Virus record (IMG/VR): IMGVR_UViG_3300037512_000782
Location: 188,732-252,731 of that record
Source of the DNA: a virus
Lineage: Duplodnaviria; Heunggongvirae; Uroviricota; Caudoviricetes
DNA: 64,000 nt
Reading direction: 5' to 3' (one strand)
Positions 9,158-45,124 of the stretch are shown here, piece by piece. The notes under the pieces are model-generated. The model saw nothing but the letters and a program-made list of their open reading frames with translations, made no database searches and was not told the DNA's origin. Position 1 is the first letter of the stretch, and each line of letters opens with the position of its first letter. The position numbers and the translations under genes are program-made.

Positions 9158-9441
9158 TGCACGTGAAGTACGAACCGACAAAGGATGTTGTTCAAGCCGT
9201 CGAAGGCGTGACGCCGCAAGCGGAGCTTGAACTGCATGTATTTACCGACAACAAGGACGAAACATTCGACGAGGCCATGCTTCGTGCGTTGCGCTCTATG
9301 CAGCTGCAGCTGAAGGCGAGCGGAGTGTCCGATCAGATGATCGACAATACGGTGAAGGCTGCGGTTCCTATGTTGGCCGTGCTTATACGACAGATAAAGA
9401 AGAAAACAGCAAGCTACCGAGAAACTAATTTCCCACACTAA
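9157..9441 (+). CDS. hypothetical protein
   Basis: 94-aa ORF coupled to the upstream gene. Confidence 0.45.
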   Translation: MHVKYEPTKDVVQAVEGVTPQAELELHVFTDNKDETFDEAMLRALRSMQLQLKASGVSDQMIDNTVKAAVPMLAVLIRQIKKKTASYRETNFPH

Positions 9442-9465
9442 CAACAATCCCAGGACACCACACAC

Positions 9466-16155: not shown

Positions 16156-16363
16156 AGCAATATAGACAACATCAAGGAAACGAAGGCCCAGAGGGCCGCT
16201 AGGATTGCCGGGACTGGCAACGGTGCGACACTTCGCACCAGACTGGTTCTGGATAGGAAGAAATACTCACGGAAAATCAAGCATAAAGGACAATCCATCG
16301 CAAGCGCGATGGATTTCGCTTTTATAGTGGACAATTTTGTGGGTTATTGCTATATTGTCCATT

Positions 16364-17236
16364 ATGGAAAGAATAATATCAGATACAATGCCGTTAGGTG
16401 ATCGTATCAAGTCGTACGAACACCAGTTCACTGGCTACACTATTGACTCGTCACTACCATTTATAGCTCGTGTGGACGGTAAGGCGTTCCATACCTATAC
16501 AAAGCGTATGCGCAAGCCGTTCGACGAACGTTTCGTGAAGGCGATGCAAGAGACTGCAAAAAAGTTGACAGAAACGTTCGATCCGATTCTGTCCTATGTG
16601 CAGTCCGATGAAATCACGTTACTATTCAAGCCGACAGCGGAACCGTTCTTGAGTGGAAAGCTGTCGAAGATGAACAGCATCATCGCAGCGACGGCGACTT
16701 ACTGGTTCAATCAGTTAATAGACCCAGAGACGCCGACCGTTGGCATTCCTATTTTCGATTGCCGCGTGTTCAACGTCCCAGATGAATGGGAAGCCGTCAA
16801 CGCGCTTCGCTTCCGTTACCGTGACGCCGTGCGCAATGCGGTTAGCGCTGCCGCTCGATACAAGGTCGGCCACTCGAAGTGCAACGGACTGAATACCGAC
16901 GAAAAACTCAAGTTAATAGGCAGCGACTGGAAGGGCTATTCTGTAGCGGCTCGCTACGGTACTTTCTACCGTCGAGTCAATGTCGTGAAGCCAGTCGCAG
17001 TCGATCGCGCCGCGCTTCCACCAGAGGTGGCTGCGAAGATTCCAGAAACTTGCCTCCGCACGGAAATTCACGAATACTACGTGAACATTGAGCAAACGTG
17101 GAACACTAGCTTGCCATACAAGTCGGAACCAGTCCCAGCTCCGTTAAGCTGCCCAGTGAGCGGCATCGACCACATCAAAAATGCCACGGACGTTATCTTC
17201 CGTGGACAAAATGCGGTACTTGATTCAAACGTATAA
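16364..17236 (+). CDS. tRNA-His guanylyltransferase-like protein (Thg1/TLP family; 3'-5' nucleotide addition, tRNA 5'-end repair)
   Basis: IARVDGKAFHTYTKRMRKPFDERF matches the Thg1 VVRLDG+xFHxF core; SDEITLLFK matches the SDEYSFVF metal-binding motif. The start could be ATG 16364 or 16388. Promoter box TTGCTATATTGTCC at 16347-16360. Terminator 17240-17270. Confidence 0.8.
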   Translation: MERIISDTMPLGDRIKSYEHQFTGYTIDSSLPFIARVDGKAFHTYTKRMRKPFDERFVKAMQETAKKLTETFDPILSYVQSDEITLLFKPTAEPFLSGKLSKMNSIIAATATYWFNQLIDPETPTVGIPIFDCRVFNVPDEWEAVNALRFRYRDAVRNAVSAAARYKVGHSKCNGLNTDEKLKLIGSDWKGYSVAARYGTFYRRVNVVKPVAVDRAALPPEVAAKIPETCLRTEIHEYYVNIEQTWNTSLPYKSEPVPAPLSCPVSGIDHIKNATDVIFRGQNAVLDSNV

Positions 17237-17239
17237 TAA

Positions 17240-17270
17240 AAGAGGCGGAATATTCCGCCTCTTTATTATA
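17240..17270. terminator. bidirectional intrinsic terminator
   Basis: GAGGCGGAATATTCCGCCTC palindrome followed by TTTATTAT. Confidence 0.65.
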
Positions 17271-23605: not shown

Positions 23606-24802
23606 TTAAAGAGTTTGACGGAGCTGGATCGCCTTGGCAATGAGCTCACGGTGATGGAAAGCGAGAGGAATTTCGTCGAGCTTGTCGATCGGATACCACA
23701 TGGCGTCCTTTGCGTCGTCTTGTGCTTCCGGATCGGCTGGCAAGATTCCTTCACGGTTGAAGTCGAACATCATGCCGATGTCGTAGCCCCAGTAGTCCTT
23801 GTGGACATCGCAGCGAGGATCCTTCGGCTTGAATACGCCGACTTGATGCACTTGCGACGTGCCGATGGTAAAGCCAGTTTCTTCCTTGACTTCACGGACA
23901 CCAGCTTCCTCGCAAGTTTCCTTCGGATTGGCGAAGCCTCCCGGCAAGCACCAGTAATCGTGGTACGGAGCCTTCAAGCGCTTCACCAAGAGGATACGGT
24001 CGTTGTGGAAGATGGCCGAAGTCACGGTGACGGAAGGACGAGGGAAGCGGAACGGATCGTAGTTGGCTACGAGTTCGTCCTCAACATCCTTGTATTCCTT
24101 CGGTTCGGACTGTCCGTACAACTTGTTGCGGCGGATATACGACATCACTACCGGAGACACTTGGTCACAGAAGCACAGCGGATCGAAATTCATCATAAGG
24201 CGAGCCTTGGTAGAACTCGTCTTCGGAATGATCCAGTCGACGTATTCCAAGCGTTCTTGGCTGCTGCGCATCTGCTTGTAAGTTTCATCCGAGATGGTGC
24301 CGAGTCCTTTGGCAGAGTCAAGTGTTTCGATGAAGGCGGTACGACGGACAATCAAGAAGTTGACGTTCTTGAGAATCCAGTCGCTGTTCACCCACTGCTT
24401 TGTAAGCAAAGAAATCCATTCGTCGGAACCGAGAACCAGCATGAAGGTCGCATCGGCCATGCTCGTCTCCTTGCGGAGATTCTGCAGAGCTTCAGCGGTG
24501 CGGCTGACTTCGTCGATGATCTTGACTCGGTGGAAGATTTCGGACGGTTCGCCTTGATTGTAGGCAGCCGGAGAATCCGAATTATCGGAGTACAGACTGT
24601 GAAGCGAATTGACCGTATGGACAATCATGGCCATGCGGTCTTCGCACTCAACCGAGTACTTCTTGGTATCGTTGTCGCTTACCAAGATGTACAAGAGGGC
24701 TTCTGGTTCCTTCTTGAGACGGTTGAGGAGTTCGGTAATAATGGCGGTGTGCGCAGTCGTTACCGGATCGAATGCGCCGCCGTAGATGTACACCTTCTTC
24801 AT
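23606..24802 (-). CDS. nadM: bifunctional nicotinamide/nicotinate mononucleotide adenylyltransferase + Nudix hydrolase (NadM-Nudix type)
   Basis: N-terminal GGAFDPVTTAH matches the (H/T)xGH nucleotidyltransferase motif; LVLGSDEW also present. C-terminal Nudix box GGFANPKETCEEAGVREVKEETG fits Gx5Ex7REUxEExGU. Confidence 0.85.
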   Translation of the reverse strand: MKKVYIYGGAFDPVTTAHTAIITELLNRLKKEPEALLYILVSDNDTKKYSVECEDRMAMIVHTVNSLHSLYSDNSDSPAAYNQGEPSEIFHRVKIIDEVSRTAEALQNLRKETSMADATFMLVLGSDEWISLLTKQWVNSDWILKNVNFLIVRRTAFIETLDSAKGLGTISDETYKQMRSSQERLEYVDWIIPKTSSTKARLMMNFDPLCFCDQVSPVVMSYIRRNKLYGQSEPKEYKDVEDELVANYDPFRFPRPSVTVTSAIFHNDRILLVKRLKAPYHDYWCLPGGFANPKETCEEAGVREVKEETGFTIGTSQVHQVGVFKPKDPRCDVHKDYWGYDIGMMFDFNREGILPADPEAQDDAKDAMWYPIDKLDEIPLAFHHRELIAKAIQLRQTL

Positions 24803-26151
24803 TAGTCGAGTGCGTCCTTGTTTTCTGGAATGGGTTCGTACTGGTACGCATCCTTCGCACGTTCGATCACCTTCGGATCGGGGCAGTTGACCTTGCCCGG
24901 AGAGTCGGAGAGCTTCACGGCGTACTTGCCGTTGGACATGACGAGCTTCATGATCATGCGAAGCGCGTCACGCTTGATGCCTCCCTTGAAGCGGAGCACC
25001 TTGCAAGCGAGGAAGCCGCCGATACCGAACGCAACATTGATACGAGTGTGGAAGCGTTCAGCGATATCGAGAGACTGGTCGCAGTTGAGGCTGTCAGACC
25101 AGCAGCCAACCTTGCTCTTGGAATTGATTGCGTTCTTGAGGTAGTGTGCGATAAGCATTTCGCCCCAGACATACGGGTCGCCGGAATCGTGGCGGCAGCC
25201 GTCGAACAGCTTTGCGTAATACTTGTCGAAGTCGCGCAAGAATGCGTTGAAGCCGAAGTTGTCGGAAAGCGCGATACCGAGGTCGCCACGGAATTCGTCA
25301 GACCAGTCTTCGAGAACGCGCTGCTGCACGAGTTCAAGCGGAATGTCCTTGATGCCCTGATACAAGGCATACATTTCGTGGGCGAAAGTACCGATGGCCT
25401 TGCAGCCGAGCTTGATTGCCAAGTATACGTTGGACGTGCCAACGAAGGCCGGGCAGAAGTCGAGCATGGTCTTGACCATGTATTCGTTCCATTCGTCAGA
25501 TACGGAACGACGGACGCCGAAGTCGGAAATGGTGAACTTGACACCACGGCGGAGTGCTGCGTTCCACTTGGCGATAGATTCGTTGAGGGCCTTCTTGGAT
25601 TCTTCCCAGTCGATTTCGAGGTCGTCGAAGAAGAGGTTCTGGATGATCTTCAAGACGTAGATTTCAAACCAAGTGACTTGGATGGCTGGGCCGTCAGCCC
25701 AGATGTGGAGACCGCCGTTGCGAGAAGGGTCGTAGTCGACGTGGATGTACTTGCGCTTGAGCTGGAAGTCGGCAAGCCATTCGATGAAGTCGTCTGACAG
25801 CCACGGCATGACACGGCGGATGCCTTCGAGTTCCCATTCAGTAAACTTGAGTGTGCAAAGGTGGTCGAGTTCGCGATTGATTTCGTCATAGAACGGAGTA
25901 AGGTCGACGCCTTCGGAACGGAGCTTGAATTCCCAGTAAGCTCGTTCGTTCGGATGCTTGTGGAACACGCACTGGCACATACCGAACTTGTACGTATCGG
26001 TCTGCGTTAGGTTGTTCACAAACCACTTGTCTTTGTTCTTGCGCTGATACTGCTTGTTTACAGTGACGCCGACTGCACGGCGCTTGCGAACAACGGTGCG
26101 ACAAGGCTGCTTCGCCCTCGCGATTGTTTTTTCTGTGACTTTAACTGCCAT
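24802..26151 (-). CDS. pncB: nicotinate phosphoribosyltransferase
   Basis: Collinear matches to PncB: TDTYKFGMCQCVFH, ISDFGVRRSVS, FVGTSNVYLAIKLGCKAIGTFAHE, RHDSGDPYVWGE, AFGIGGFLAC, KLSDSPGK. Has a basic ~45-aa N-terminal extension. 1-nt stop/start overlap with nadM. Confidence 0.9.
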   Translation of the reverse strand: MAVKVTEKTIARAKQPCRTVVRKRRAVGVTVNKQYQRKNKDKWFVNNLTQTDTYKFGMCQCVFHKHPNERAYWEFKLRSEGVDLTPFYDEINRELDHLCTLKFTEWELEGIRRVMPWLSDDFIEWLADFQLKRKYIHVDYDPSRNGGLHIWADGPAIQVTWFEIYVLKIIQNLFFDDLEIDWEESKKALNESIAKWNAALRRGVKFTISDFGVRRSVSDEWNEYMVKTMLDFCPAFVGTSNVYLAIKLGCKAIGTFAHEMYALYQGIKDIPLELVQQRVLEDWSDEFRGDLGIALSDNFGFNAFLRDFDKYYAKLFDGCRHDSGDPYVWGEMLIAHYLKNAINSKSKVGCWSDSLNCDQSLDIAERFHTRINVAFGIGGFLACKVLRFKGGIKRDALRMIMKLVMSNGKYAVKLSDSPGKVNCPDPKVIERAKDAYQYEPIPENKDALD

Positions 26152-26279
26152 CGGAATAGTCCTTGTTAAAGATGAATGTTTCGCGGAAATATAGCAAATG
26201 AGTGTGAGTCTGGCAAGCCCAAGCAGAAATAGTTAAAAAGTAAGCTATGTTGTTCGAAGGCTTTATTATATTTGGCGGC

Positions 26280-26477
26280 ATGTTGTGGAATGTATTGCTA
26301 ATATTGCTGATTTTGACGATAATATCGGTGTATGGGATTGCCATCGTCAAGCTGGTTTGCTATATTAAGACCCAGAAACGGGTCGACCGTCTGGAACACA
26401 CAGTCGGCGACCTATCACAAAAACTCACCGAAATTATGAAGGACACTAATGAGAGCAACGACGGAAACCTACAATAA
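26280..26477 (+). CDS. small membrane protein (alternative start 26247)
   Basis: Product is MLWNVLLILLILTIISVYGIAIVKLVCY..., a TM helix. A TATATTTG box ends 5 nt before ATG 26280. Confidence 0.4.
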   Translation: MLWNVLLILLILTIISVYGIAIVKLVCYIKTQKRVDRLEHTVGDLSQKLTEIMKDTNESNDGNLQ

Positions 26478-27231
26478 TGTGCATAGCATCTTGACCGCAC
26501 CAGATGTGGTGGATCGACTTGAGCGTGAACGGAGCAATCCTCTGTTCGGTTTCATCGACCAGTACTTGGCCGGATGTGAGCACGTCAACTATCACTACGA
26601 AGGTGATGTGTGGGTTCATACGAAGCTCGTCATTACGAATATCTTCAAGGGCGAACATGACTACTTGGATGTCGCTGCGGCGTTGCTTCACGACATCGGC
26701 AAGAAGGATGCGCTTGCGAAGAACAACGGCAAGAACATGGCCGGACATGAATTTATTGGTCGTCCGCTTGCCGAAGAAGTTTTGAACAAATTCGACTTCA
26801 GCCAGAACGAGAAGGATGTCGTTCTGTGGATGGTAGAGAACCATACGAAGGCGAACGGCTTGCCGAAGGCGAAGATGAAGTTCGCTTGCTGGACATTCGT
26901 GTCTCATCCGTTGTTTTATCGCGCAGTACGTCTTGCAGTAGCCGATTCCAACGGCACTATCGGCGCTGATGGTAAGCCAGTCATGGACTACATGGCGGCA
27001 ATCGAAGCGAACAAGATTGTCAATCTCTGCTTGCACAATCCGATGCCCGGCCATCTCGTGACATGGAATGACATGATTGCCTACCCAGGTGTCGAAGAAA
27101 TTACTGACGCGAACAAGAAGTTTGAGCTTTACGAACTCTGCCACAAGATCCAGATCAACGGTGGCGGTAACAAGAAGGATTCAATTCTCAGAGCTGCGCT
27201 TAGGTGCATGAAGGACAAAGGATCGATATGA
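26449..27231 (+). CDS. HD-domain phosphohydrolase
   Basis: WVHTKLV ... LLHDIGK ... D gives the H..HD..D signature of the HD superfamily. Confidence 0.7.
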   Translation: MRATTETYNNVHSILTAPDVVDRLERERSNPLFGFIDQYLAGCEHVNYHYEGDVWVHTKLVITNIFKGEHDYLDVAAALLHDIGKKDALAKNNGKNMAGHEFIGRPLAEEVLNKFDFSQNEKDVVLWMVENHTKANGLPKAKMKFACWTFVSHPLFYRAVRLAVADSNGTIGADGKPVMDYMAAIEANKIVNLCLHNPMPGHLVTWNDMIAYPGVEEITDANKKFELYELCHKIQINGGGNKKDSILRAALRCMKDKGSI

Positions 27232-27875: not shown

Positions 27876-28098
27876 TTCTACTTAAACTGTGTAGAATCCA
27901 TCTATGTATGGCTTCGAGGACGTTGCCCATCAGTGGAGTCATGCCATGCATCATCCTCGTCTTGACGGCGATCCATCGTTTCTTCATGAGGCTATAAAAA
28001 TGGTGGCATGCGCCTATGGCAAACGCTATGTATATGGCCATAAAAATTTTTTCACGCATATTTCACAAATTATATCAAAAACCTCTTGACGCTGATGA

Positions 28099-28117
28099 GT
28101 GTTATTACTATATTTCG
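28099..28117 (+). promoter_or_regulatory. host-like promoter box GTTATTACTATATTTCGTG upstream of cca
   Basis: TATATTTC ends ~5 nt before ATG 28122. Confidence 0.5.
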
Positions 28118-28121
28118 TGGC

Positions 28122-29378
28122 ATGAAGATTGATTTGAGCAAATACCACGAATTGGAGCTGAGTGACGGCCTCGCATTGGCGAAGGCGATCACCGAGCTCG
28201 GAGACGGCAAGGCGGAAGCTTATGTCGTCGGCGGATGCGTACGTGACCTTGTTCGTCATCAGCTAGGGCAGACTAGCACGGTAGATATCCATGATGTCGA
28301 TATCGCCACGTCGCTGTCTCTCGAAGAACTGAAGGCTAACTTCCAAACGGTCAGCAACAACGGCGAAAAACACGGAACGCTGCTGGTATTCTGGAACACA
28401 CAATACTTTGAAGTGACGCACTTCCGCGTCGACGGCGACTATAGCGACGGTCGTCATCCGGACGACGTATCCTTCACGAGTTCTTTCGAAGAAGATACGG
28501 CTCGCCGTGACTTTACTATCAACGCGCTCGGCATGAACTGGGACGGCGAAATCATCGACTTCCATGGCGGCGTTGAAGATATCAAGAAGAGAACCATCCG
28601 CGCTGTCGGTAATCCTGACGAGCGTTTCAAGGAAGATGCTCTCCGCATGATTCGTGCGGTGCGCTTCGCGGTAAACTTCGATTACATTATCGATAATAAC
28701 ACGTCTAGCGCAATCAGCAAGAACGCCGAGTTGGTTGAACATGTATCGAACGAACGTATTCGTTCCGAGTTCTTGAAGCTGTCCTCTTACGACAACATGC
28801 CCGATTTTATCGACCGTTTGATCTGGGTCGGCTTGATTAAGCATATCAGAGCGTTCGTCGGCATGGACTGGTACGAAGTCAAGTGCAACCTTATTGAGTG
28901 CGATGACTTGCTGACTGCAGACAACCTATTCCCCGCTATCTGCTACACGGCTAATGACGAAAGCAACTTGGAAGCATTCGTTCCTACTCGTGAGGAACGC
29001 AAGATGTGGAACTGGCTCCGTTCTTACAAGAATGTGTACGCATGGGATCCGGATTCCAAGCTGTATTGGACTTCGCTGGTGGATTTCGTGTCTGGTCAGT
29101 TCGAGCTGCTGCTTGCGCTCAATGCTGATCTGTATTGTGATCGTGCGTGGTTGCCCAAGCTTCCAGCAGCAAGCTATCTGTTGCAGAATCCGCCCGACAT
29201 GAAGGCGATTTCTAAGAGGGTCGCCGATATGGGCATTCCTCAAGGCAAGGCTTTTGGTGAAAAGGTGAAAGAACTCACTGAAGCCGAATACGCCAAGATG
29301 GCGGCTGTATTCCCAAACACAGTCTCGCTGACGATGGGCAACAGTACGCTTGTCTATAAAATTGAATCTGTCAAATAA
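28122..29378 (+). CDS. cca: tRNA nucleotidyltransferase (CCA-adding enzyme), class II
   Basis: AYVVGGCVRDLV (GGxVRD), DVDIATS (DxD catalytic motif) and RRDFTINAL (RRD motif). Track start 28086 is TTG. ATG 28122 sits 5 nt after a TATATTTC box. Confidence 0.85.
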   Translation: MKIDLSKYHELELSDGLALAKAITELGDGKAEAYVVGGCVRDLVRHQLGQTSTVDIHDVDIATSLSLEELKANFQTVSNNGEKHGTLLVFWNTQYFEVTHFRVDGDYSDGRHPDDVSFTSSFEEDTARRDFTINALGMNWDGEIIDFHGGVEDIKKRTIRAVGNPDERFKEDALRMIRAVRFAVNFDYIIDNNTSSAISKNAELVEHVSNERIRSEFLKLSSYDNMPDFIDRLIWVGLIKHIRAFVGMDWYEVKCNLIECDDLLTADNLFPAICYTANDESNLEAFVPTREERKMWNWLRSYKNVYAWDPDSKLYWTSLVDFVSGQFELLLALNADLYCDRAWLPKLPAASYLLQNPPDMKAISKRVADMGIPQGKAFGEKVKELTEAEYAKMAAVFPNTVSLTMGNSTLVYKIESVK

Positions 29379-29399: not shown

Positions 29400-29972
29400 A
29401 TGGGTAAAACAATCATTCTCGGCGCGGTCGGCTTTATCGTCGTCGCAATCCTCACAGTAATCGCATCCATCTTCATGGTTCAGAACTATCAGAACCGTGC
29501 AATCCAGATGGAACAGCTGGTGGAAAAGTCGCAGTCCAACCTCAACGCGGAATACAACCGCCGCGCTGGCCTTCTCGTCAACTTGGCGGAAGCCGTGATG
29601 AGCTATGACGAACACGAAGCCAAGGTTCTCGTGGAACTCTCGAAGGCTCGTACTCCAGACGGCGGCAAGGGAAACGTGAACGCTTCCGCTTACATCCAAG
29701 GTGTCGTGGAACGCTATCCGCAGCTCAGATCGATCGAGAATTACGATAGGTATATGACGGAACTTGCGATGACTGAAAATCGCATTGCGTCACATCGTAA
29801 TGATTACAATACCATGGTTGGGAACTATATCGCCTATGTGCGCGGATTCCCGGCTCGTTTCTTGCTCTCTATTCTCGGATATCAGCCGAAGAATTACGAA
29901 TACTTGCAGTTCGAAAAGGCTCCGGTAGACGCACCGACTGGCCTCTTGAAGAAGAAGGCTGATAAGGAATAG
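29400..29972 (+). CDS. LemA family membrane protein
   Basis: N-terminal TM helix, then QNYQNRAIQMEQ and EYNRRAGLLVNLAEAV, matching the LemA signature QxxRRADLIPNLV. Confidence 0.75.
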   Translation: MGKTIILGAVGFIVVAILTVIASIFMVQNYQNRAIQMEQLVEKSQSNLNAEYNRRAGLLVNLAEAVMSYDEHEAKVLVELSKARTPDGGKGNVNASAYIQGVVERYPQLRSIENYDRYMTELAMTENRIASHRNDYNTMVGNYIAYVRGFPARFLLSILGYQPKNYEYLQFEKAPVDAPTGLLKKKADKE

Positions 29973-30766: not shown

Positions 30767-31177
30767 ATGAACGTAAAAATTGTAAATGGACTTGACGGAA
30801 ACGGATCCGTCACAATTACGGACAGCAATGGCGATGTCATGGTGTCCTTGAAGGACTGCCCGGAATTTCCGGTGTCTGGCGACATCACGATGGAATCCGA
30901 CAATGTTCTTATCGTCGGTGGCCGCCGCATCGAATGCGGTAAGCGTATCGCCGGGATCAACATCTGCGGTAACATTAAGTCCGTCCAAAATCTTCCAAAC
31001 ATTGTCGTGAACGGAAATGTCAGCAACGTCAGTACGACGTCTGGTGACGTGACTGTCCACGGCGACGTAAATGGCTCGGTGTCCGCCGTTTCTGGCGATG
31101 TCGAAGTCAGAGGTAGCGTCGCTGGCTCGGTCAGTACCGTGTCTGGCGATGTAGACGTCAGAAACAATCAACAATAA
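30767..31177 (+). CDS. beta-helical repeat protein (bactofilin/polymer-forming-like)
   Basis: Repeated (V/I)xGDVxVxGxV units: VSGDITM, VHGDVNGSVSAVSGDVEVRGSVAGSVSTVSGDVDV. Confidence 0.55.
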   Translation: MNVKIVNGLDGNGSVTITDSNGDVMVSLKDCPEFPVSGDITMESDNVLIVGGRRIECGKRIAGINICGNIKSVQNLPNIVVNGNVSNVSTTSGDVTVHGDVNGSVSAVSGDVEVRGSVAGSVSTVSGDVDVRNNQQ

Positions 31178-31189
31178 AGGAAAGTAAAC

Positions 31190-32827
31190 ATGGATATGTC
31201 CAATGTTCTTCTTTACGGCGGAATAGCAGTCGTCGTGCTGTTCCTCCTCGTACTCTTCTGTGTGTCCTACATCAAGGCCGCACCCGACGAAATCATCATC
31301 ATTTCTGGCTTCCGCAAGCGCCGTACCATCATTGGCCATGCCGGATTCAAGATTCCGTTCTTGGAACGAGCCGACAAGCTCAGCTTGAAGCTCTTCTCCA
31401 TCGACGTGAAGACCAAGGACATTCCGACCAGCGACTACATCAATGTGGGTGTGGATGCCGTCGTGAGTGTGAAGGTGTCTGATGAACCGACCCGCATCGA
31501 ATCTGCTGCACAGAACTTCTTGAACAAGAAACCTGAAGACATCGCCGAAATGATCACGGATATCCTCGAAGGTAATATGAGGGAGATCGTGGGCCAGATG
31601 GAACTCGTGAAGTTGGTCAACGACCGCAAGGGTGTGTCCGAACTTGTCCAGAAGAACGCTGACCCAGACCTCCAGCGCCTCGGCTTGGAAATCCAGACGT
31701 TCAACATCCAGAACTTCAGTGACGATAAGGGCGTAATCGACAACCTCGGCGTGGATAAGACCTCCGCTATCCGCAAGGCTGCAGCAATCTCCAAGGCCAA
31801 TGCAGAACGCGACATCAGCGTTGCTGAATCTCAGGCCAAGAAGGAAGCCAACGACGCCGCCGTGGCTGCAAACCTCGAAATCGCCCAGAAGCAGAACGAA
31901 CTCGAAGTGAAGAAAGCTGACCTCAAACGCATCGCCGACACGAAGAAGGCTGAAGCTGACGCTGCTTACGAAATCCAGAAGCAAGAACAGCAGAAGGTCA
32001 TCAACATCAAGGCCGCTGACGCCGAATGTGCTCGCCAAGAAAAGGAAGCAGAAATCCGCGAACGCATGGTCAACGTGAAGAAGAAAGAACTCGAAGCCGA
32101 ACTCGAAAAGACTGCAGAAGCAAAGCGCAACGCTCAGATCCAGAACTCCGAAGCTGACCTCTACCGTCAGAACAAGGACGCAGAAGCAAAGCTCTTTGCA
32201 AAGACTCAAGAAGCAGAAGCCATCAAGCAGATCGCTGAAGCTGAAAAGGCTCGCGCCTTCAACGAAGCTGAAGCCATCCGCGCAAGAGGTCAGGCAGAAG
32301 CTGACGCCATCAAGGCAAAGGGTCTTGCAGAAGCCGCTGCCCTCGATCAGAAGGCAGAAGCCATGCAGAAGTATGGTGAAGCCGCTCGTCAGGAAATGCA
32401 GTTGAAGGCCCTTGAAAAGTACTTCGACCAGTTGCCGAGTGTCGCAGCCGCCATCGCAAAGCCGATGGAAAGAATCGGCGGCATCACCATGTACGGCAAC
32501 GGCAACACCGCTGCTCTCACTGGCGACATCATCAAGACTTTGACCCAAGTATCCAATGGTCTCACCGAATCGCTCGGTATCAGCCTCCCCAATGTGCTTA
32601 GCTCCATGTTCGGCGCAAAGCTTGCTGGCGTAGGCAACAACAAGGCCGAAAAGGTTCCTTGCGACGTCGTGAACGAAGCACCGAAGGTTGATACAGAAAC
32701 TCCGAAGGCCGCCCCGGCTCCGAAGGCTGAAGCTCCCAAGATGACCGCTGAACAGGTCTCCAAGATCGCAGCGACCGTCAAGAAGACTCAGCAGAAGCCG
32801 TCCGAACGCAAGCTTCCGTGGGAATAA
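31190..32827 (+). CDS. flotillin-like SPFH/band-7 protein with long EA-rich coiled coil
   Basis: N-terminal TM helix, then an SPFH core (IIIISGFRKRRTIIGHAGFKIPFLERADKLSLKLFSIDV...). Followed by ~250 aa of AEAxxKAxAEA flotillin-type coiled coil. Terminator 32853-32884. Confidence 0.85.
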   Translation: MDMSNVLLYGGIAVVVLFLLVLFCVSYIKAAPDEIIIISGFRKRRTIIGHAGFKIPFLERADKLSLKLFSIDVKTKDIPTSDYINVGVDAVVSVKVSDEPTRIESAAQNFLNKKPEDIAEMITDILEGNMREIVGQMELVKLVNDRKGVSELVQKNADPDLQRLGLEIQTFNIQNFSDDKGVIDNLGVDKTSAIRKAAAISKANAERDISVAESQAKKEANDAAVAANLEIAQKQNELEVKKADLKRIADTKKAEADAAYEIQKQEQQKVINIKAADAECARQEKEAEIRERMVNVKKKELEAELEKTAEAKRNAQIQNSEADLYRQNKDAEAKLFAKTQEAEAIKQIAEAEKARAFNEAEAIRARGQAEADAIKAKGLAEAAALDQKAEAMQKYGEAARQEMQLKALEKYFDQLPSVAAAIAKPMERIGGITMYGNGNTAALTGDIIKTLTQVSNGLTESLGISLPNVLSSMFGAKLAGVGNNKAEKVPCDVVNEAPKVDTETPKAAPAPKAEAPKMTAEQVSKIAATVKKTQQKPSERKLPWE

Positions 32828-36449: not shown

Positions 36450-36490
36450 AAAACGTGTCAACTATGGTTGACACGTTTTTACTTTTTTGC
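36450..36490 (+). terminator. intrinsic terminator
   Basis: AACGTGTCAAC-tatg-GTTGACACGTT followed by TTTTACTTTTTTG. Confidence 0.75.
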
Positions 36491-36534
36491 TATATTTTTC
36501 AATAACTTCACATTAAACACAAAGGAAATCCACT

Positions 36535-37421: not shown

Positions 37422-37452
37422 AAAAGGAGCCGAGAAATCGGCTCCTTTTCCT
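37422..37452. terminator. bidirectional terminator at island boundary
   Basis: GGAGCCGA-gaaa-TCGGCTCC followed by TTTTCC. Ends both the ParB-like gene (+) and the island operon (-). Confidence 0.65.
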
Positions 37453-38014
37453 ATACGCTGGAAATCCTTATCGGTTCCGCAAGAGTCTCGCTCTCGAACC
37501 ACCGTATGTATTCCTCGACCGGAGCCTTCAAGTCCGGATACTTGGCGTACAGCTTGTACTTGTCTAGGTGCATGAACTTCAGCGTCGTCGCTATCATGCG
37601 GCTATCGTCGTCGGCGGAAGACGTATAGGTTGATATGCAGCAGCTGCACTTTCCGTAGCCGAAATGCGTCTGGAACAAGCGCACAAACCTTGCCTCGACG
37701 AAGTTCTTCGCATTTAACCGTTCATTTTCGCCAATGACGACCTTGTGTCCCGGTATCTTGGGTACGATATGTATGTAGATGCTGCGCTCCGACAGAAGGT
37801 ACGCCTCGCCGCCACCGATGACGAGCATGCGGATAAATACCTTCACTGCGGCAGTGCTGCTGGCCCTTCTCCGTATGTAGTCGGTTCGGCCCTTCGTAAT
37901 CTTGTTTACGACGTGCCTCAGGGCCATTACGACCGCAGCCGAGTAAAGTACCGCTGTAATCTTCTTGAGCACGTTATACCTCGTCCATGAGCAAATGAGT
38001 GAGGAACCCGACAA
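37451..38014 (-). CDS. island gene, hypothetical (start uncertain, alternative 37927)
   Basis: First ORF of the higher-GC minus-strand island; hydrophobic N-terminal segment. Confidence 0.45.
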   Translation of the reverse strand: MSGSSLICSWTRYNVLKKITAVLYSAAVVMALRHVVNKITKGRTDYIRRRASSTAAVKVFIRMLVIGGGEAYLLSERSIYIHIVPKIPGHKVVIGENERLNAKNFVEARFVRLFQTHFGYGKCSCCISTYTSSADDDSRMIATTLKFMHLDKYKLYAKYPDLKAPVEEYIRWFESETLAEPIRISSV

Positions 38015-38414
38015 GGAACGATCCGCCGATCGCCCAAGACTCCGTCGATCCGAAGTCGAGCATCATCCTCAGCAAGAACACGAGGAACAGCGAGGTTATC
38101 GCTCCGTAAAGCAAGGTATGCCCGGCTCCTCGGTGAGTGAACAGCTGCGGAAGCATCGAGTACGCCATCACGAGGAATCCCAGCAGTACGTTCCCGGTAC
38201 AGAGAAGCGCGATGGAGCCGATCAGTACCAAGGCGTAGCAGATGCGCGACGAGTGCGACTTTACGTCCATGTCGGGCGAAAGCGCCCCAAGGAACGACGC
38301 GACTCCGCACATGAGCGAAGTCTCCCAAGAAAGATCGGTGAGCATTGCGCCGAGTCCGGCGATCGAAAGCCCGGTGACCGCCCCTACGGCGGCATGAGGT
38401 GCGAAGTCTGACAT
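37974..38414 (-). CDS. YdjM/DUF457-like membrane-bound metal-dependent hydrolase
   Basis: Polytopic membrane protein of 146 aa ending ...FLTHLLMDEV, resembling the YdjM-type H..D motifs. Similarity-based call. Confidence 0.5.
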   Translation of the reverse strand: MSDFAPHAAVGAVTGLSIAGLGAMLTDLSWETSLMCGVASFLGALSPDMDVKSHSSRICYALVLIGSIALLCTGNVLLGFLVMAYSMLPQLFTHRGAGHTLLYGAITSLFLVFLLRMMLDFGSTESWAIGGSFLVGFLTHLLMDEV

Positions 38415-38417
38415 GTA

Positions 38418-38900
38418 CTATCTCCTTCTGAAAAGCGTGAATTTTATCGGTATGTCGATATGGGACGGAAGCTCGTCGAACGCCTTGCAAAGTTCCATGA
38501 CGAATTTCTTCTCGGTCGGACTGATCGAAGCGAGGAAATCCTTTCCGTCACCGTAGGACTCGATCATTTCGTCGATCTCGTCTTGGTTCAGCGTGACCTC
38601 CGTGACGCTGACGAGTATGCCGCTGTGGTTGAATGCGGTGAGCATGTGCTTGGGCATCATGTCGCGGATATAGTATCCGAAGCTGCTTACCGAAGTCGCG
38701 TGGGTCACGGTGAACTCCTTTATGCTGTACACCCAGCCATGCATGCTGTTAGAGAACAGCAGAGCCGCCTTCTTCTTCTCTACGCCGCCGTGCCATTGTC
38801 CGGCGTAGTCGCCAACGAACTTCCGCATGCTCATCTTCGACAGACGCCACACGGCGAGCACGGCGGACACGCCGTACAGTATGCCCTTCCAGTACCTCAT
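38418..38900 (-). CDS. N-terminally membrane-anchored island paralog P1
   Basis: MRYWKGILYGVSAVLAVWRLSKM signal-anchor. 4-nt overlap with the upstream paralog. Confidence 0.55.
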   Translation of the reverse strand: MRYWKGILYGVSAVLAVWRLSKMSMRKFVGDYAGQWHGGVEKKKAALLFSNSMHGWVYSIKEFTVTHATSVSSFGYYIRDMMPKHMLTAFNHSGILVSVTEVTLNQDEIDEMIESYGDGKDFLASISPTEKKFVMELCKAFDELPSHIDIPIKFTLFRRR

Positions 38901-39361
38901 TTGATCGTCCTCGGCAATCTCATGAATATCTTCTCTATGCGGTCGACCTCGGCTATCACGTCCTTCGGTATGTCCGACTCGTCGTGGTGTAGGAAAAGGT
39001 GTACGGTGTTGATGTTCACCAAGACGACCTCGTACGAAATTATCTTGTCGCGGTCTACGCGAGTCCGAAGGTGCATCTCGTTCGATACCAGCTGGATAAG
39101 GCTGCTGCCAGGCATGTCGCCCTTGTAGCGGAACTCGCGTACCCGGTGACGCGCTATCTGGGCGATGCTATGCACCATCATGTTGTTCCGCATGTGGCTG
39201 TATGTCACGGTGAACGCCAGCGCCGCCCTTACGGTGCTGTATCCGTTGCCGTACGACTCGATAAACCAGCGGAACAGCATGCGGTCGTGCGAGTCCTTGA
39301 GGAACCGTCGTAGCCCAGCCGCCAGAAACCCGATGTATATTGTCCACAGCGCTATTCTCAT
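38897..39361 (-). CDS. N-terminally membrane-anchored island paralog P2
   Basis: Start set to MRIALWTIYIGFLAAGLRRF by analogy with the 4-nt overlaps of the other paralogs. The track ORF extends to 39457. Confidence 0.5.
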   Translation of the reverse strand: MRIALWTIYIGFLAAGLRRFLKDSHDRMLFRWFIESYGNGYSTVRAALAFTVTYSHMRNNMMVHSIAQIARHRVREFRYKGDMPGSSLIQLVSNEMHLRTRVDRDKIISYEVVLVNINTVHLFLHHDESDIPKDVIAEVDRIEKIFMRLPRTIK

Positions 39362-39828
39362 AGGTTCCTCGGTATGTTCATGAAGGATTCGTATATGGGA
39401 TGGTACTGTTCCCATGTGACGTCGTCCATGAAAGACGTCTTGCCCGACAGCATGCACCGAGACGGTGTGTACTGATAGAGTTCATACGGTAGGTCGAATC
39501 TTGGGTAGTACTTGGCGAGGTACTTGTCCATCGCGCCTCGTATCCTTGGTATCGCTTCCAAATAGCCGTGCGCACCTCTGCAGCGGAAGGTCTTGACAAT
39601 ACACGTAGGTATGGACACCCTCAGTCTGACCGCTTCGCCGTCGACGGTCATCCCCAAGTCCTTGGTCTTCACGTACACCAGCACAACCCTGTAGGCGTCA
39701 AGGCCGAACATCTGCAATGCCAGCGTCTGCTGGACACGGAAGCTGCGATAGCTCTTGAGCGTCTCCCATGCGTTCCTTGCAGCGCCGACGGCAAAGAAAC
39801 CGTATATTGTCCACAATACCTTGTTCAT
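39358..39828 (-). CDS. N-terminally membrane-anchored island paralog P3
   Basis: MNKVLWTIYGFFAVGAARNAWETLK anchor. C-terminus ends ...FMNIPRNL, homologous to P4. Confidence 0.55.
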   Translation of the reverse strand: MNKVLWTIYGFFAVGAARNAWETLKSYRSFRVQQTLALQMFGLDAYRVVLVYVKTKDLGMTVDGEAVRLRVSIPTCIVKTFRCRGAHGYLEAIPRIRGAMDKYLAKYYPRFDLPYELYQYTPSRCMLSGKTSFMDDVTWEQYHPIYESFMNIPRNL

Positions 39829-40283
39829 AGTTCCCTCGGCATGGCCTCGAACGCCTTGTTGATGCAGCGTACGTCGTAGCTGTCAAGGTGCTGTATGAGC
39901 TTCCACTCCCAGCCTTCCGTGTCCGGGCTGGACGTGTAGTCGCTCTCCAAGGTGAATTCGAGGTCGAGGCTGCCGTAGTGCCGACTGATGTACCTCTTCA
40001 TCCGTGCCTTCAGTATGATCGTCACGTCGAAGAACCCTTCGGCCCTCTTGCAGACGAACGTCCTCGTGATTCCGCTGGCGACCGAGACGTACATCGGCTG
40101 CTTGCCGCCGTCCGGAATGTCGATCCACAGAACCTTCCTGTACGATAGCGAGACATCGTACTTCCCCGGCGGAAGGTACGTGTCCCTCAGCCGCATGCCT
40201 ACGCCCATCTTCACCAGCTTCGAGAACCGCCGTGCGGCTCCGACGAGGAATCCTAGATACACAATGTAAAGAAACTTTTTCAT
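39825..40283 (-). CDS. N-terminally membrane-anchored island paralog P4
   Basis: MKKFLYIVYLGFLVGAARRF anchor. TFVCKRAEGFF...FEAMPREL is homologous to P3. Confidence 0.55.
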   Translation of the reverse strand: MKKFLYIVYLGFLVGAARRFSKLVKMGVGMRLRDTYLPPGKYDVSLSYRKVLWIDIPDGGKQPMYVSVASGITRTFVCKRAEGFFDVTIILKARMKRYISRHYGSLDLEFTLESDYTSSPDTEGWEWKLIQHLDSYDVRCINKAFEAMPREL

Positions 40284-40786
40284 AATAGCTCGTCCTCACG
40301 CATCTCCCCGCAGTTGACCAGCCGACGGTAGAACTCCCTTCGGTACTCGTTCATCACCCAGAGAAGCCTAGACATCCTGACGCCGTGCTTCTTGCAGAAC
40401 GTGTCGAACTGGTACTCCTCCTTCACCATGCGGTATCCGTCGTCGCTTGGGCAGTCCTCGGTACACCTGTAGGGGACGTAGTCGTCGATCGTGATGAAGA
40501 ATCCGTCGAGGTCGCCACGGTACTTCTCGCCGAGACGGCACCTCACGTCGTCGAACACCGAGTCGCGAACCTTGAACGGTATGTACATCGACGAGTACGT
40601 GAAGTACATCTCGCCCAGCTTCCTTATCACGAAGTAGCAGACGTACACGTCGCTTCCCCTGAACTTCTTCGGGTTCAGCCAGCCCTTGTATCGGTAGTTC
40701 TGCACGAAACGCGCCTTCCGCAACACCGACTTCCAGATGCCGACCACGGCAAGCAGTATGCCTATCCACGGAACCATCTTCCTCAT
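40280..40786 (-). CDS. N-terminally membrane-anchored island paralog P5
   Basis: MRKMVPWIGILLAVVGIWKSV anchor. C-terminal EEYQFDTFCKKHGVRMSRLLWVMNEYRREFYRRLV is shared with P6 and P7. Confidence 0.55.
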   Translation of the reverse strand: MRKMVPWIGILLAVVGIWKSVLRKARFVQNYRYKGWLNPKKFRGSDVYVCYFVIRKLGEMYFTYSSMYIPFKVRDSVFDDVRCRLGEKYRGDLDGFFITIDDYVPYRCTEDCPSDDGYRMVKEEYQFDTFCKKHGVRMSRLLWVMNEYRREFYRRLVNCGEMREDELL

Positions 40787-41334
40787 AGCAGCATGTCCTC
40801 GCTCATCTTTCCGTCGAGAACCAGCCGTCTGTACAGCTCCCTACGGTAGTCCACCATCGCCATCTCCACTCTCCTCATCGGTACTCCGTGCCTACTGCAG
40901 AACGTAGAGAAGCGGTACTCCTCCTTGATAGTCCCCGTGCCGTTTCCGTTGTCGTCCATGTACTGCGGCGGAACGTTGGGCTCTATCGTCATGAGGAACC
41001 CGTCCATACGACCGAACGAACCGCCTCCGCCAACGTCGTAGAGGCCGAGTGTAAGGTCGAACTGGTATCGGTAGTCGTCCACTACGTCCTTCGGCAAGTA
41101 GATCGGAGAACAGTTGTAGTAGAACTCGGACACCAGCTTCCGCTTGCCGTGGACGCTCTTCAGCTTCACGTCGTACAGACAGAAGCACATCTGCCTCCAC
41201 GACCAAGGACGGAACTTCCTACCGTCCAGAAGACCCAAGTGACGCCTCTCAAGGAACGCCACGCGACGCCGCATCGACTTCCATACGCCGATCCCCAGTA
41301 TGCCGAACGCTATCATGGGCATGCCGATCCTCAC
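40783..41334 (-). CDS. N-terminally membrane-anchored island paralog P6
   Basis: MRIGMPMIAFGILGIGVWKSM anchor. EEYRFSTFCSRHGVPMRRVEMAMVDYRRELYRRLV is homologous to P5. Confidence 0.55.
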   Translation of the reverse strand: MRIGMPMIAFGILGIGVWKSMRRRVAFLERRHLGLLDGRKFRPWSWRQMCFCLYDVKLKSVHGKRKLVSEFYYNCSPIYLPKDVVDDYRYQFDLTLGLYDVGGGGSFGRMDGFLMTIEPNVPPQYMDDNGNGTGTIKEEYRFSTFCSRHGVPMRRVEMAMVDYRRELYRRLVLDGKMSEDMLL

Positions 41335-41870
41335 CGTACGTCCTCCTCCTTGATGTACCCGTCCTCGATCAGCTTCACGTACAGCTGGCCACGCAAGTCG
41401 TCCATCGCTCCCTTCAGCTTGCTGTAAGGAACCCTATACACCTCGCAGTACGCCTTGAACGTGTACTCCGGCTTCACTTTCCATACGGCGTCGCCCTTGA
41501 ACGTCCTTCCAGACAGATACCGTGCAAACCCAGGGATGTTCACGCACAGAAGCAGCTCCCAGCCGCCAAGCATCTCCTTGTACGGAGCAGTTATCTCCAC
41601 GGCGAGACTCGCCGCGTATACCGTAGGGACGGCAGTAGGCAACAGCACCTCGCACATGTCGTAGTACCGCAGCACCGAGCCGTCCTTCACCCGGCACAGC
41701 ATGTAGTGGTAGCTTCGGCATGGGTAGTTGAACAGCATGTGGCTGTACGACGTCCTAGCACGGCCTCCCAGTCTCCTAACGAACTTGAAACGGCCTACCA
41801 GCGCACGGTATCCGCCGTACGCTGCAAGACATACCGCAAGAAGCGGATATATGACCGTGCCTATCCTCAT
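41331..41870 (-). CDS. N-terminally membrane-anchored island paralog P7 (first gene of island operon)
   Basis: MRIGTVIYPLLAVCLAAYGGYRAL anchor. KPEYTFKAYCEVYRVPYSKLKGAMDDLRGQLY relates it to P5 and P6. On the minus strand, a TTTGCTATATTTCGG box ends ~8 nt upstream of the ATG. Confidence 0.55.
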   Translation of the reverse strand: MRIGTVIYPLLAVCLAAYGGYRALVGRFKFVRRLGGRARTSYSHMLFNYPCRSYHYMLCRVKDGSVLRYYDMCEVLLPTAVPTVYAASLAVEITAPYKEMLGGWELLLCVNIPGFARYLSGRTFKGDAVWKVKPEYTFKAYCEVYRVPYSKLKGAMDDLRGQLYVKLIEDGYIKEEDVR

Positions 41871-41875
41871 TTCTT

Positions 41876-41910
41876 GCCGAAATATAGCAAAATTCCCTAT
41901 ATGCGACTAC
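41876..41910 (-). promoter_or_regulatory. host-like promoter of the island operon (minus strand TTTTGCTATATTTCGG)
   Basis: Reverse complement of 41880-41895 gives TTTGCTATATTTCGG, ending ~8 nt before the P7 start codon at 41870. Confidence 0.5.
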
Positions 41911-41973
41911 GGGGCCCCCAGGGCAATTTTTCGAAAATCGGGGCATCCGCTTCCGTAGGAAACCCCAGTGGGG

Positions 41974-43125
41974 TCATTTACTCGGTGATTTACGACAACG
42001 GCCAGTTTGTTTTGGAATTAACTTAATTATGTCTTGGTATATACCAGATCGATACGCTTGCCCGTAAGCGACCCTATGATTTGTCTTGAATTCTGTGCGA
42101 GTTGTACATGACCTCGCGATTTCACATAATTCGTCATACGTATATGTGTGGTATATGTTGACTCGTAAGGGAGGAACCTCGGCAGTGAGTCGGCCAATGA
42201 GTCCTCGATGAACGATTTCGTTATATATGCTTGGGTGTTTTTTGCGGCACTTAGACATACTCCCTGATTGTTGGACAGTCAAAAGTAGTTCGTCGTCGGC
42301 TAGTTGGCTTGGCGTGGTTCGCGGCTTAAATAAGTCGCTGATCATATTTCGCCGAACGGCTTCGCTGTATTCTGAATAATATTGTGATTTGAATTTACGC
42401 TTGCTTGAGCATAACGATGCTTTAGTGCGGATGTCCTCATCGGTAATATTACATAATGCCGCTGATGATGTATGTGTGGATTGATTCCAATGGGAGATTT
42501 CAGATTCGAATTTACTGTATATCCCTCGTCTAAGCGATTCTTTGTAATCGGCGGCATGATAATTCATGAATTCGCTTCTGTTTCGGCAGCTGAATGCGAT
42601 ATCGTATAGCTGTTGATCACTTAATGATTGTATATATCGGTTGGCTCGGCGATGCACTGGGGTATAATCAGGTAGTCGGCGGAGCAGATGTGTCCAACCG
42701 TGGTATTGAAGAGAACTGTATTCTCTTGGAAATTGGGTTCTAAATTCCTTGCATGTCTGACATCGGTCTATAAGGACTGCAATTTTATCTTCGGTCAGGC
42801 CGCTATATCGGCCAAGTGCCCCGCCATTATTCTTGTTAAGCACGGTGTAACCGTTTCGCTTATGCCGCGCAATTTCGTCGCGTTCTAGCGCAGACGCCTC
42901 ATTCCCGGTTAGACGGTTATGCAGCAGTGACACCGTAAACGTGCATCCAGTGGTGTCTAAGTAGTCCTTGACTAGACTGGCCTTGCGATAGTGGTATTCT
43001 TGATAAATTCGCCGTTCATAGCAACTAGTTAACCCTATGTATACCGCATTAGTTTCGATAAAATGCCAGCGGTATACGACCCAAATGGGCAGCTGCCGTA
43101 TAATTGCACTATAGTCAGATTGCAT
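41974..43125 (-). CDS. free-standing GIY-YIG homing endonuclease with C-terminal ~33-aa repeats
   Basis: VYRWHFIETNAVYIGLTSCYERRIYQEYHY...E...N..GG is GIY-YIG-like. C-terminal repeats of form xCxxRxEFKxxHxxAYxxAYRxGIYxxI. AT-rich. Confidence 0.7.
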   Translation of the reverse strand: MQSDYSAIIRQLPIWVVYRWHFIETNAVYIGLTSCYERRIYQEYHYRKASLVKDYLDTTGCTFTVSLLHNRLTGNEASALERDEIARHKRNGYTVLNKNNGGALGRYSGLTEDKIAVLIDRCQTCKEFRTQFPREYSSLQYHGWTHLLRRLPDYTPVHRRANRYIQSLSDQQLYDIAFSCRNRSEFMNYHAADYKESLRRGIYSKFESEISHWNQSTHTSSAALCNITDEDIRTKASLCSSKRKFKSQYYSEYSEAVRRNMISDLFKPRTTPSQLADDELLLTVQQSGSMSKCRKKHPSIYNEIVHRGLIGRLTAEVPPLRVNIYHTYTYDELCEIARSCTTRTEFKTNHRVAYGQAYRSGIYQDIIKLIPKQTGRCRKSPSK

Positions 43126-44797: not shown

Positions 44798-45124
44798 ATG
44801 CGTAAAATGTTGTTTACAATTCTTACTTTGTGTGCGCTCGCTTGCGCCACCGAACTACCTATTTGTGAAGAGTTCGAGGGCGAAAAGAATGTTTCGTGCG
44901 TAGCTGGCGACCGCCAAGCGGTCATTATCACCTATCACGCCGATGGGTCGCGGTCTTACGAGTATTTCAAGGACAACCGCAAAATTTATTTGGAATATGG
45001 CGAAAACTATGTTTATGCGTCCGATGGCAAGCGTAAAATAGATGTTAGCCCTATACCGAACGATGACCATATAGCGTATATAGACGAGCTATTTTATGGT
45101 CTAATAGATACTTTGGACTTCTAA
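44798..45124 (+). CDS. putative secreted protein or lipoprotein
   Basis: MRKMLFTILTLCALACATELP signal peptide with a lipobox-like LxxC. Coupled to the upstream gene (TAAAATG). Confidence 0.5.
   Translation: MRKMLFTILTLCALACATELPICEEFEGEKNVSCVAGDRQAVIITYHADGSRSYEYFKDNRKIYLEYGENYVYASDGKRKIDVSPIPNDDHIAYIDELFYGLIDTLDF

Follow-up and report, generated by a model that had tools for sequence, protein, structure and literature searches.

Proteins of the YdjM/DUF457 family (PF04307) are LexA-regulated inner-membrane proteins regarded as putative metal-dependent hydrolases. To our knowledge, no enzymatic activity is known for this family, and its occurrence in an operon of membrane-anchored proteins has not been described. 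Such an operon is found in the stretch of DNA analysed here, 64,000 nucleotides (nt) of the Caudoviricetes record IMGVR_UViG_3300037512_000782, further called the window. It comprises nine minus-strand genes (G1-G9), arranged head to tail from position 41870 down to 37451; G8 encodes a YdjM-like protein and the other eight genes encode proteins with N-terminal hydrophobic anchors. G8 is like the described family in its profile score above threshold, its polytopic character and its HRGxxHT motif. It differs in being short (146 amino acids, aa), in belonging to a phage-like genome and in lying within an operon of eight anchored proteins.

Several other described systems share features with this operon. 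Tandem arrays of type IV pilin-like proteins and pseudopilins contain proteins of 150-185 aa that combine a hydrophobic helix at the N-terminus with an alpha/beta domain and are encoded beside a polytopic membrane protein, and the operon resembles them in gene size, N-terminal helix, alpha/beta domain and polytopic neighbour. We considered and rejected a pilin-like array, as the class III signal is absent and no pilin fold was matched. SPFH/Band 7 and FliL proteins also combine an N-terminal single-pass anchor with an alpha/beta domain and C-terminal helices and form membrane-associated oligomers; the Band_7 domain was not detected by profile or fold. The phi29 protein p16.7 is a membrane-anchored DNA-binding protein, encoded by a single gene and not by an array with a hydrolase. 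Three of the anchored proteins (family A, see below) likewise have an N-terminal anchor, a predicted cytoplasmic C-terminal domain and a helix-turn-helix-like C-terminus, but sequence or significant structural similarity to p16.7 was not found and their DNA binding is only a candidate property. Finally, phage morons, for example those of lambdoid phages, resemble the operon in having their own promoter and terminator, atypical composition and membrane-associated products. The operon differs from them in that it is not variably present but syntenic and conserved throughout its lineage, comprises nine coupled genes where morons have one or two, and is preceded by a promoter-like motif of the genome's common type.

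Comparison with related sequences indicates that this is an old, vertically inherited, lineage-specific operon of gut or rumen phage-like genomes of very large size. It is most unusual for having a codon usage of its own, held over a long time. The anchored proteins form, as judged from profile comparison, two undescribed protein families of three and four members, accompanied by an unrelated eighth anchored protein, G9.

Gene array and its relatives

The array starts with the three family A genes: G1 (41331-41870, 179 aa), whose product consists of the anchor, an alpha/beta domain and a C-terminal helix-turn-helix-like motif; G2 (40783-41334, 183 aa), which has a GTG start and overlaps G1 by GTGA; and G3 (40280-40786, 168 aa), for which a structure was modelled. 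Family B follows, with G4 (39825-40283, 152 aa; anchor, alpha/beta domain and a C-terminal F..(M/L)PRxL motif; the other modelled protein), G5 (39358-39828, 156 aa), the divergent G6 (38897-39361, 154 aa) and the remote member G7 (38418-38900, 160 aa), which carries a C-terminal extension. G8 lies at 37974-38414 and G9 (173 aa, GTG start) at 37451-37972. The initial annotation had counted these nine minus-strand genes correctly and had described consecutive ones as overlapping by 4 nt. This is so at all six junctions from G1 to G7 (ATGA or GTGA overlaps), but G7 and G8 are separated by 3 nt and G8 and G9 by 1 nt. In the rest of the window, a 4-nt overlap occurs at only 2 of 48 same-strand junctions. 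With a promoter-like motif at one end and a strong hairpin terminator at the other, the operon is a self-contained transcription unit. The possibility that the genes are fragments of one frameshifted gene was rejected: each of them has its own start and anchor, they are called separately in relatives, and the ratio of nonsynonymous to synonymous substitution rates (dN/dS) is below 1.

Relatives of the operon are rare and closely confined. A protein identical to G3 is also encoded on a metagenome contig of 342,771 bp. When 5.8 billion proteins were searched with profiles of family A, family B and G8, only 28, 63 and 8 clusters were retrieved, respectively, all of them from related metagenome contigs, the longest of which reach 184-469 kb. 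Approximately 20 more distant members of family A were added when 1.84 billion representatives were searched exhaustively with HMMER. Similar DNA was absent from INPHARED phage records, IMG/VR scans with G3 and with the flanking 287-aa gene found nothing, and GTDB species genomes contained no relative of family A. The JGI metagenome scan yielded only six loci; one alignment (A7) was too diverse for use in locus scans. The distinct relatives compared (L001, L005, L006/7, L009/10, L014, L018, L021 and L023) are contigs of 28-440 kb.

The operon occupies the same position in every recovered locus, with a rearrangement in L021. On one side it is flanked by an ArdC-like gene, a gene of 245-264 aa and a variable endonuclease-like gene, on the other by a gene of 278-287 aa and further conserved genes, followed by genes for flotillin, LemA and a CCA-adding enzyme. 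This synteny is kept in L005, where the island proteins are 26-82% identical to those of the window, and in L014, where identity drops to about 22-30% in family A and about 64% in G8 (by the nearest cluster). In L021, with a G8 51% identical, only the side of flotillin and PolyA_pol is kept; there the genes follow in the order B, B, A, YdjM, B, X and adjoin flotillin and PolyA_pol. Family A, family B and the YdjM-like protein occur together in every lineage, L014 and L021 included, despite different order and copy number. Since the operon is found at the same place in all relatives, even deeply diverged ones, there is no presence/absence polymorphism. The variation between conserved flanks that marks morons is limited here to internal copy number.

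Within this stable frame, the genes evolve rapidly. In comparison with L006 and L009, dN/dS amounts to 0.25-0.77 in the island and 0.09-0.49 in flanking genes, and the island proteins diverge faster than the flanks. These values speak for real genes under purifying but relaxed selection, and not for positive selection. The island had been called diversifying; its faster divergence, changing copy number and swapped slots support this weakly, and dN/dS does not indicate positive selection. As regards copy number, L009 carries a fourth family A gene (180 aa, L009 9462-10004). The slot of G5 holds a paralogue 52% identical to G4 in L009 (10959-11420) and only a 54-aa remnant in L005 (10950-11114). 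The operon's least conserved gene is G9, and it occurs in two allele types: copies in L014 and L006 are 80-86% identical to that of the window, those in L005, L009 and L018 only 43-46%. Because these types do not follow the relatedness of the other genes, they suggest recombination within the operon. Repeats inside the island are short and old at the DNA level, and the lineages retain a one-to-one orthologue of each paralogue. In L018, the place of G7 and G8 is taken by a gene (8751-10037) for a 428-aa protein, TnpB-like by eye and with a Cys-rich, zinc-ribbon-like end; this replacement inside the operon is transposon-associated.

Composition and transcription signals

Distinct base composition and codon usage had been noticed from the sequence at the outset, and both GC windows and codon statistics bear this out and rule out uniform composition. 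GC content is 0.56 in the island and 0.49-0.50 on either side of it; the change is abrupt near 41.9 kb and more gradual around 37.5-37.8 kb. All nine genes have raised GC at third codon positions (GC3; z-scores from +1.3 to +3.4). We compared the codons of the nine island genes with those of the 64 other genes called in the window (73 in all). The shift resides mainly in G-ending codons (GAG, AGG, CGG, GCG, CTG, TCG): GAG makes up 78% of Glu codons in the island versus 28% in the rest of the window, AGG 34% versus 7% and CGG 19% versus 5% of Arg codons, GCG 45% versus 18% of Ala codons, and CTG 36% versus 18% of Leu codons. GTG accounts for 36% versus 25% of Val codons, so that the preference for AGG and CGG arginine and GTG valine reported initially is reproduced by the counts. 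In a leave-one-out codon log-likelihood ratio, the island genes hold the top 9 of 73 ranks (Mann-Whitney p = 7e-7). Their products are enriched in Arg, Met and Tyr and depleted of Asn, Gln and Lys. Strand was rejected as a cause of the shift, as the ten other minus-strand genes resemble the plus-strand genes.

Long antisense open reading frames (ORFs) of 148-222 aa fill the island on the plus strand (37965-38411, 38460-39128, 40385-40849 and 40888-41427), as had been observed before. They arise because the codons TTA, CTA and TCA are nearly absent from the sense strand. We rejected them as real genes, since the open frames are not kept in L014 or L018.

The compositional deviation is shared by the relatives. 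The GC excess is equal in L001, L005, L006 and L009, and L005, L009 and L014 share the codon preference (GAG 72-79% versus 17-23%, AGG and CGG together 52-56% versus 14-17%). In L021 the whole neighbourhood has the GC content of the module (0.53) and the codon preference is weaker. Against L009, synonymous divergence (dS) is often lower in the island (0.14-0.52) than in the flanks (up to 1.38). The same difference in composition is seen in relatives with 22-55% protein identity. Synonymous sites are saturated at such divergences, and therefore either the codon deviation has been maintained or the rest of the genome has drifted away from it. On this comparative evidence, the deviation appears to be ancient and not a fresh import.

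The promoter-like motif TTTGCTATATTT (41880-41891, minus strand) ends 9 nt before the ATG of G1. The initial annotation regarded it as the island's own promoter. It does precede G1, yet it is not specific to the island: with up to two mismatches the motif has 25 matches in the window versus 4.2 expected, and three further exact copies (2913-2924, plus; 26187-26198, minus; 36486-36497, plus) each lie upstream of a gene. The motif is also invariant upstream of the array in L005, L006, L009, L012, L014 and L021. Its recurrence in the window and its invariance in relatives identify it as the genome's own promoter type. The window encodes a sigma-70-family protein (9466-10206, plus strand; Sigma70_r2 and r4), and this protein may read the motif. 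The Bacteroides -7 consensus TAnnTTTG is not enriched in the window (15 matches versus 28 expected). In L021, two copies of TTTGCTATATTT form an outward-facing divergent pair.

The motif is part of a non-coding block of about 105 nt upstream of the array (41871-41975, minus strand) with a mean column identity of 90% among the window, L005, L006 and L009; the adjoining region of G1 is only about 73% identical. The block contains the GC-rich palindromes CCCCACTGGGG and GGGGGCCCC. Its predicted RNA folding is not unusual (z = -0.55) and it has no match in Rfam. Judging by this conservation, it probably holds regulatory DNA, and we regard it as a candidate region where a regulator may bind.

At the other end, between the convergent G9 and 287-aa genes, lies the hairpin 37422-37449 with the stem AAAAGGAGCCG / CGGCTCCTTTT. 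It folds strongly on both strands (-21.7 kcal/mol and z = -4.4 on the minus strand, -20.2 kcal/mol and z = -6.1 on the plus strand), in agreement with its earlier designation as a bidirectional terminator. A simple terminator scan missed it because its T-run has only four bases. The hairpin is kept with compensatory changes in L014, and in L021 a different hairpin is found at the same place.

Taken together, these results do not support the proposal that the island is a recently acquired, foreign moron: it has the same position in all relatives, its codon deviation is shared by them, and its promoter is of the genome's common type. The case calls for caution in genome scanning, where atypical GC content and codons, together with a private promoter and terminator, mimicked recent horizontal acquisition and only the relatives revealed an ancient, maintained deviation. 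If the deviation is selected, this would be a case of a phage operon with a codon usage specific to it.

Anchored proteins and the YdjM-like protein

The anchored proteins were previously taken for one family of seven with three subfamilies. Homology among all seven was not detected, and profile comparison gives two families instead. In family A (G1, G2 and G3; hhalign probabilities 98.7-99.9%), G2 and G3 are related already by BLASTP (36% identity, E = 2.6e-30; hhalign 99.9%), and G1 matches both of them with probabilities of 98.7-99.2%. The core of family B is formed by G4 and G5 (98.8%). G6 joins them by its match to G4 (92.8%, E = 3.8e-7) and by the shared invariant residues Y9, F12, F76, M95, F145, P149 and R150, and G7 does so once distant members are added (profile A8 versus A4: 94%, E = 1.4e-7, 138 columns). 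Members of family B end with the motif F..(M/L)P(R/K)x(L/I). Between families A and B, the profile-profile probability is 0.6%, that is, no sequence relationship. The match of G9 to the family B profile is confined to residues 2-29, the anchor; beyond it, homology of G9 to A or B is not detectable.

As stated in the initial annotation, none of the anchored proteins could be assigned to a known domain, nor to a well-known virion family. G1-G7 and G9 are without match in Pfam, PHROGs, PADLOC and NCBIfam. PHROG hits of the island proteins were non-significant (E >= 0.002) and included no family of known function, none of ten proteins matched a PADLOC model at E <= 0.1, searches of PDB sequences with A3, A4, A12 and G8 gave no match, and the BFVD fold search had no match with E <= 0.001.

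AlphaFold2 models of G3 (pLDDT 81.9, pTM 0.71) and G4 (pLDDT 77.0, pTM 0.62) are confident in their globular parts. The order of elements is the same in both: a long N-terminal helix, a beta-hairpin, a helix, one to three strands and two C-terminal helices. Neither model has a significant fold neighbour. Weak neighbours common to the two are the C-terminal domain of aIF2-alpha, the YebC-family protein HP0162 and SAM-AMP lyase. The models are consistent with, though not proof of, one common small alpha/beta fold for G3 and G4. At the C-terminus of family A, where the conserved pattern is F..FC+xxGV...(L/V)...M....Y..LV..G, the best-conserved Cys, Gly and Val fit positions 5, 9 and 10 of the classical helix-turn-helix and two helices are modelled. 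This C-terminus matches no helix-turn-helix family of Pfam, and the Cys is not kept in distant members.

Seven N-terminally anchored proteins had been listed. All of G1-G7 are indeed of this kind, but the count is one short, as G9 is anchored too. The eight proteins have one or two basic residues at the start and then 13-19 uncharged ones in a row. Their best 19-residue windows have favourable Wimley-White octanol energies (-1.6 to -7.6 kcal/mol). Such anchors are present in 8 of 9 island genes and in 4 of 63 other genes of the window (Fisher p = 3.5e-7), two of the four being LemA and flotillin. In all eight proteins and their orthologues, the net charge differs between the two sides of the anchor, with +1 to +2 on the N-terminal side and +3 to +5 over the 15 residues that follow. 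From this asymmetry and the positive-inside rule, a cytoplasmic location is predicted for the anchored domains, with only a very short N-terminal stretch outside. Conservation of the anchors extends beyond hydrophobicity to particular residues: Tyr9/10 is invariant in those of G4-G6, G7 and G9, and family A has a nearly invariant Pro6. This conservation suggests specific helix-helix contacts.

G8, whose likeness to YdjM had been recognized from the sequence, scores above the cut-off of PF04307 (38.6 versus 29 bits, E = 9.8e-10). The match spans residues 6-144 of G8 and covers positions 5-106 of the 176 in the profile; PF04307 is also precomputed for the orthologues. Several Kyte-Doolittle windows above 1.6 agree with a polytopic protein. 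No other gene of the operon is as conserved as G8, which is 82-97% identical in relatives, and nine sequences with identities as low as 50% all share H7, D48, D50, H94, R95, H99, H140 and D144. Because the full set of invariant His and Asp residues is kept, G8 is a putative metal-dependent hydrolase. By profile analysis, YdjM was related to zinc phospholipase C (alpha-toxin), Het-C and P1 nuclease, and it was proposed to act as a membrane-disrupting phospholipase (PMC8557891).

Proposed function, alternatives and genome context

We suggest, with a probability of about 0.4, that the operon encodes a membrane-tethered multi-subunit assembly around the YdjM-like hydrolase, which modifies the host inner membrane during infection. 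Tight translational coupling would ensure that the subunits are made together. Each of G1-G7 and G9 would contribute a short anchor, a compact alpha/beta domain facing the cytoplasm and, between the two, a basic juxtamembrane stretch; the conserved anchors would dock in the membrane, possibly on G8, and the assembly would then alter the inner membrane by lipid hydrolysis or by changing membrane organisation. This appears to be the most economical reading because of the coupling, the co-occurrence of families A and B with YdjM, the conserved anchors and the predicted cytoplasmic orientation. We also counted in its favour the neighbourhood of LemA and flotillin/SPFH genes, whose arrangement is conserved. 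From these features we infer that the nine proteins act together at the host cytoplasmic membrane; likewise, we infer membrane insertion, topology, complex formation, hydrolase activity and biological role.

Several observations weigh against such an assembly. With 13-19 residues, the hydrophobic runs are short, and the 19-residue Kyte-Doolittle threshold is exceeded by G3 alone, so membrane spanning is predicted but not certain. No homology match from family, PDB or fold searches assigns a function to the anchored proteins. The link between YdjM and phospholipases comes from literature, and our searches of PDB sequences gave no match. In L018, a TnpB-like gene stands in place of G7 and G8; G8 may thus be dispensable, or the L018 genome may be defective. 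The phage identity of the genome itself rests on PHROG matches, a sigma factor, NAD-salvage genes and large contigs, and the window showed neither a capsid nor a terminase gene. Lastly, the codon usage private to the operon is unexplained by the membrane assembly, nor is it explained by any of the alternatives.

Among these alternatives, the operon might be, as the initial annotation had it, an accessory cassette of moron type, whose membrane proteins block superinfection or counter host defence. Membrane-anchored proteins of superinfection exclusion are represented by Imm and Sp of phage T4, and all products of the operon are membrane-associated. The promoter and terminator, the atypical composition, the evolution faster than that of the flanks with variable copy number and swapped slots, and the adjoining variable, low-GC endonuclease-like gene would suit a cassette of this kind. 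We nevertheless consider it unlikely, because the operon stays at one place even in deeply diverged relatives without presence/absence polymorphism, its promoter is the standard one of the genome, and the anchored domains are predicted to be cytoplasmic rather than periplasmic. PADLOC and functional PHROG matches are missing as well, and nine conserved, coupled genes are many for exclusion. The same predicted orientation speaks against a lysis or lysis-timing module, in which G8 would be a membrane-damaging enzyme of phospholipase type and the anchored proteins its holin-, antiholin- or spanin-like regulators. The small size and membrane association of all products fit this idea, and their Gly/Ala-rich, weakly hydrophobic anchors resemble signal-anchor-release segments. 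The proposed membrane-disrupting phospholipase activity of YdjM would fit it, too (PMC8557891). The module is quite unlikely given that no muralytic enzyme is encoded in or beside the operon (the Amidase_2 protein of the window lies outside 23-47 kb), that eight regulators would be unprecedented, and that no PHROG lysis family is matched.

A cytoplasmic orientation, together with the basic stretch after the anchor, would rather favour proteins that tether phage nucleic acid, or the machinery of replication or transcription, to the membrane, with the C-terminus of family A binding DNA there as in phi29 p16.7. The conserved pattern there fits helix-turn-helix positions 5, 9 and 10 and coincides with the two C-terminal helices of the G3 model. 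Yet Pfam helix-turn-helix families do not match it, its Cys is not conserved in distant members, and family B, G9 and G8 would be left without explanation, which makes tethers quite unlikely as well. Tandem paralogous immunity genes are common beside toxins, and the paralogues could accordingly be viewed as an immunity array against G8 as a YdjM-type toxin. YdjM domains do occur as C-terminal toxin modules of RHS-type toxins (PMC8557891). However, each paralogue has its one-to-one orthologue across lineages, all of them belong to the translationally coupled genes that precede G8, G8 itself is a small integral membrane protein that lacks a delivery domain, and PADLOC gives no match; we therefore find a toxin-immunity cassette highly improbable.

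An extended version of the membrane assembly would attribute a function also to the codon preference. In it, the operon of one jumbo-phage lineage encodes a hitherto unknown multi-subunit membrane machine, two new folds are built around a YdjM-type enzyme, and the G-ending codons (GAG, AGG, CGG, GCG) are functional. We hold this combination for improbable. If it were true, the preference would mean codon-level control of the timing or amount of the operon's translation, for example through phage-encoded tRNAs or an altered host tRNA pool.

As to the genome, a jumbo phage is likely on sequence grounds, though not proven. The window matches phrog_2426 (E = 2.9e-130), phrog_5931 and phrog_9677, and encodes, besides the sigma factor, GP88, an amidase, ArdC, RadC and the tRNA-His guanylyltransferase Thg1 (16337-17236, plus strand). 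Further genes specify a NUDIX-domain protein (23606-24802, minus), a nicotinamide phosphoribosyltransferase (NAMPT)-like protein (24802-26151, minus), an HD-domain protein (26449-27231, plus) and an enzyme of the CCA-adding or poly(A) polymerase family (28086-29378, plus). Functions of NAD salvage and tRNA repair, as present in the window, are typical of jumbo phages; no tRNA gene was found in the window. Gastrointestinal jumbo phages with NAD-salvage genes and Bacteroidota hosts have been described (PMC11662467). Several source sample names may point to ruminant datasets. Hardly any jumbo phages of gut or rumen hosts of Bacteroidota type have been cultivated, and functions have been assigned to only a minority of their genes. 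For these phages, the operon supplies two new families with confident models, the motif F..LPRxL and a membrane enzyme with intact putative catalytic residues.

The genes for a LemA-family protein (29400-29972), a 136-aa protein (30767-31177) and a 545-aa flotillin/SPFH protein (31190-32827) form a block that is conserved in all relatives. It lies a few kb from the operon, and the neighbourhood is unusually rich in membrane-associated genes. On the other side, the operon is adjoined by a gene of low GC content (41974-43125, minus; 0.44) which, like another low-GC gene of the window (17266-18915, minus; 0.36), belongs to phrog_20046. Its N-terminus is GIY-YIG-like by eye, which was not confirmed by Pfam. 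In relatives, the corresponding gene encodes 383, 464, 591-592, 263 or 611 aa and it is absent from L005; it looks like a mobile gene of endonuclease type. The gene at 44798-45124 (plus strand) has the lowest codon fit among the called genes of the window. It encodes a 108-aa protein which begins with MRKMLFTILTLCALACATE, a signal-peptide or lipoprotein-like N-terminus, and in relatives it is conserved and adjoins the ArdC-like gene.

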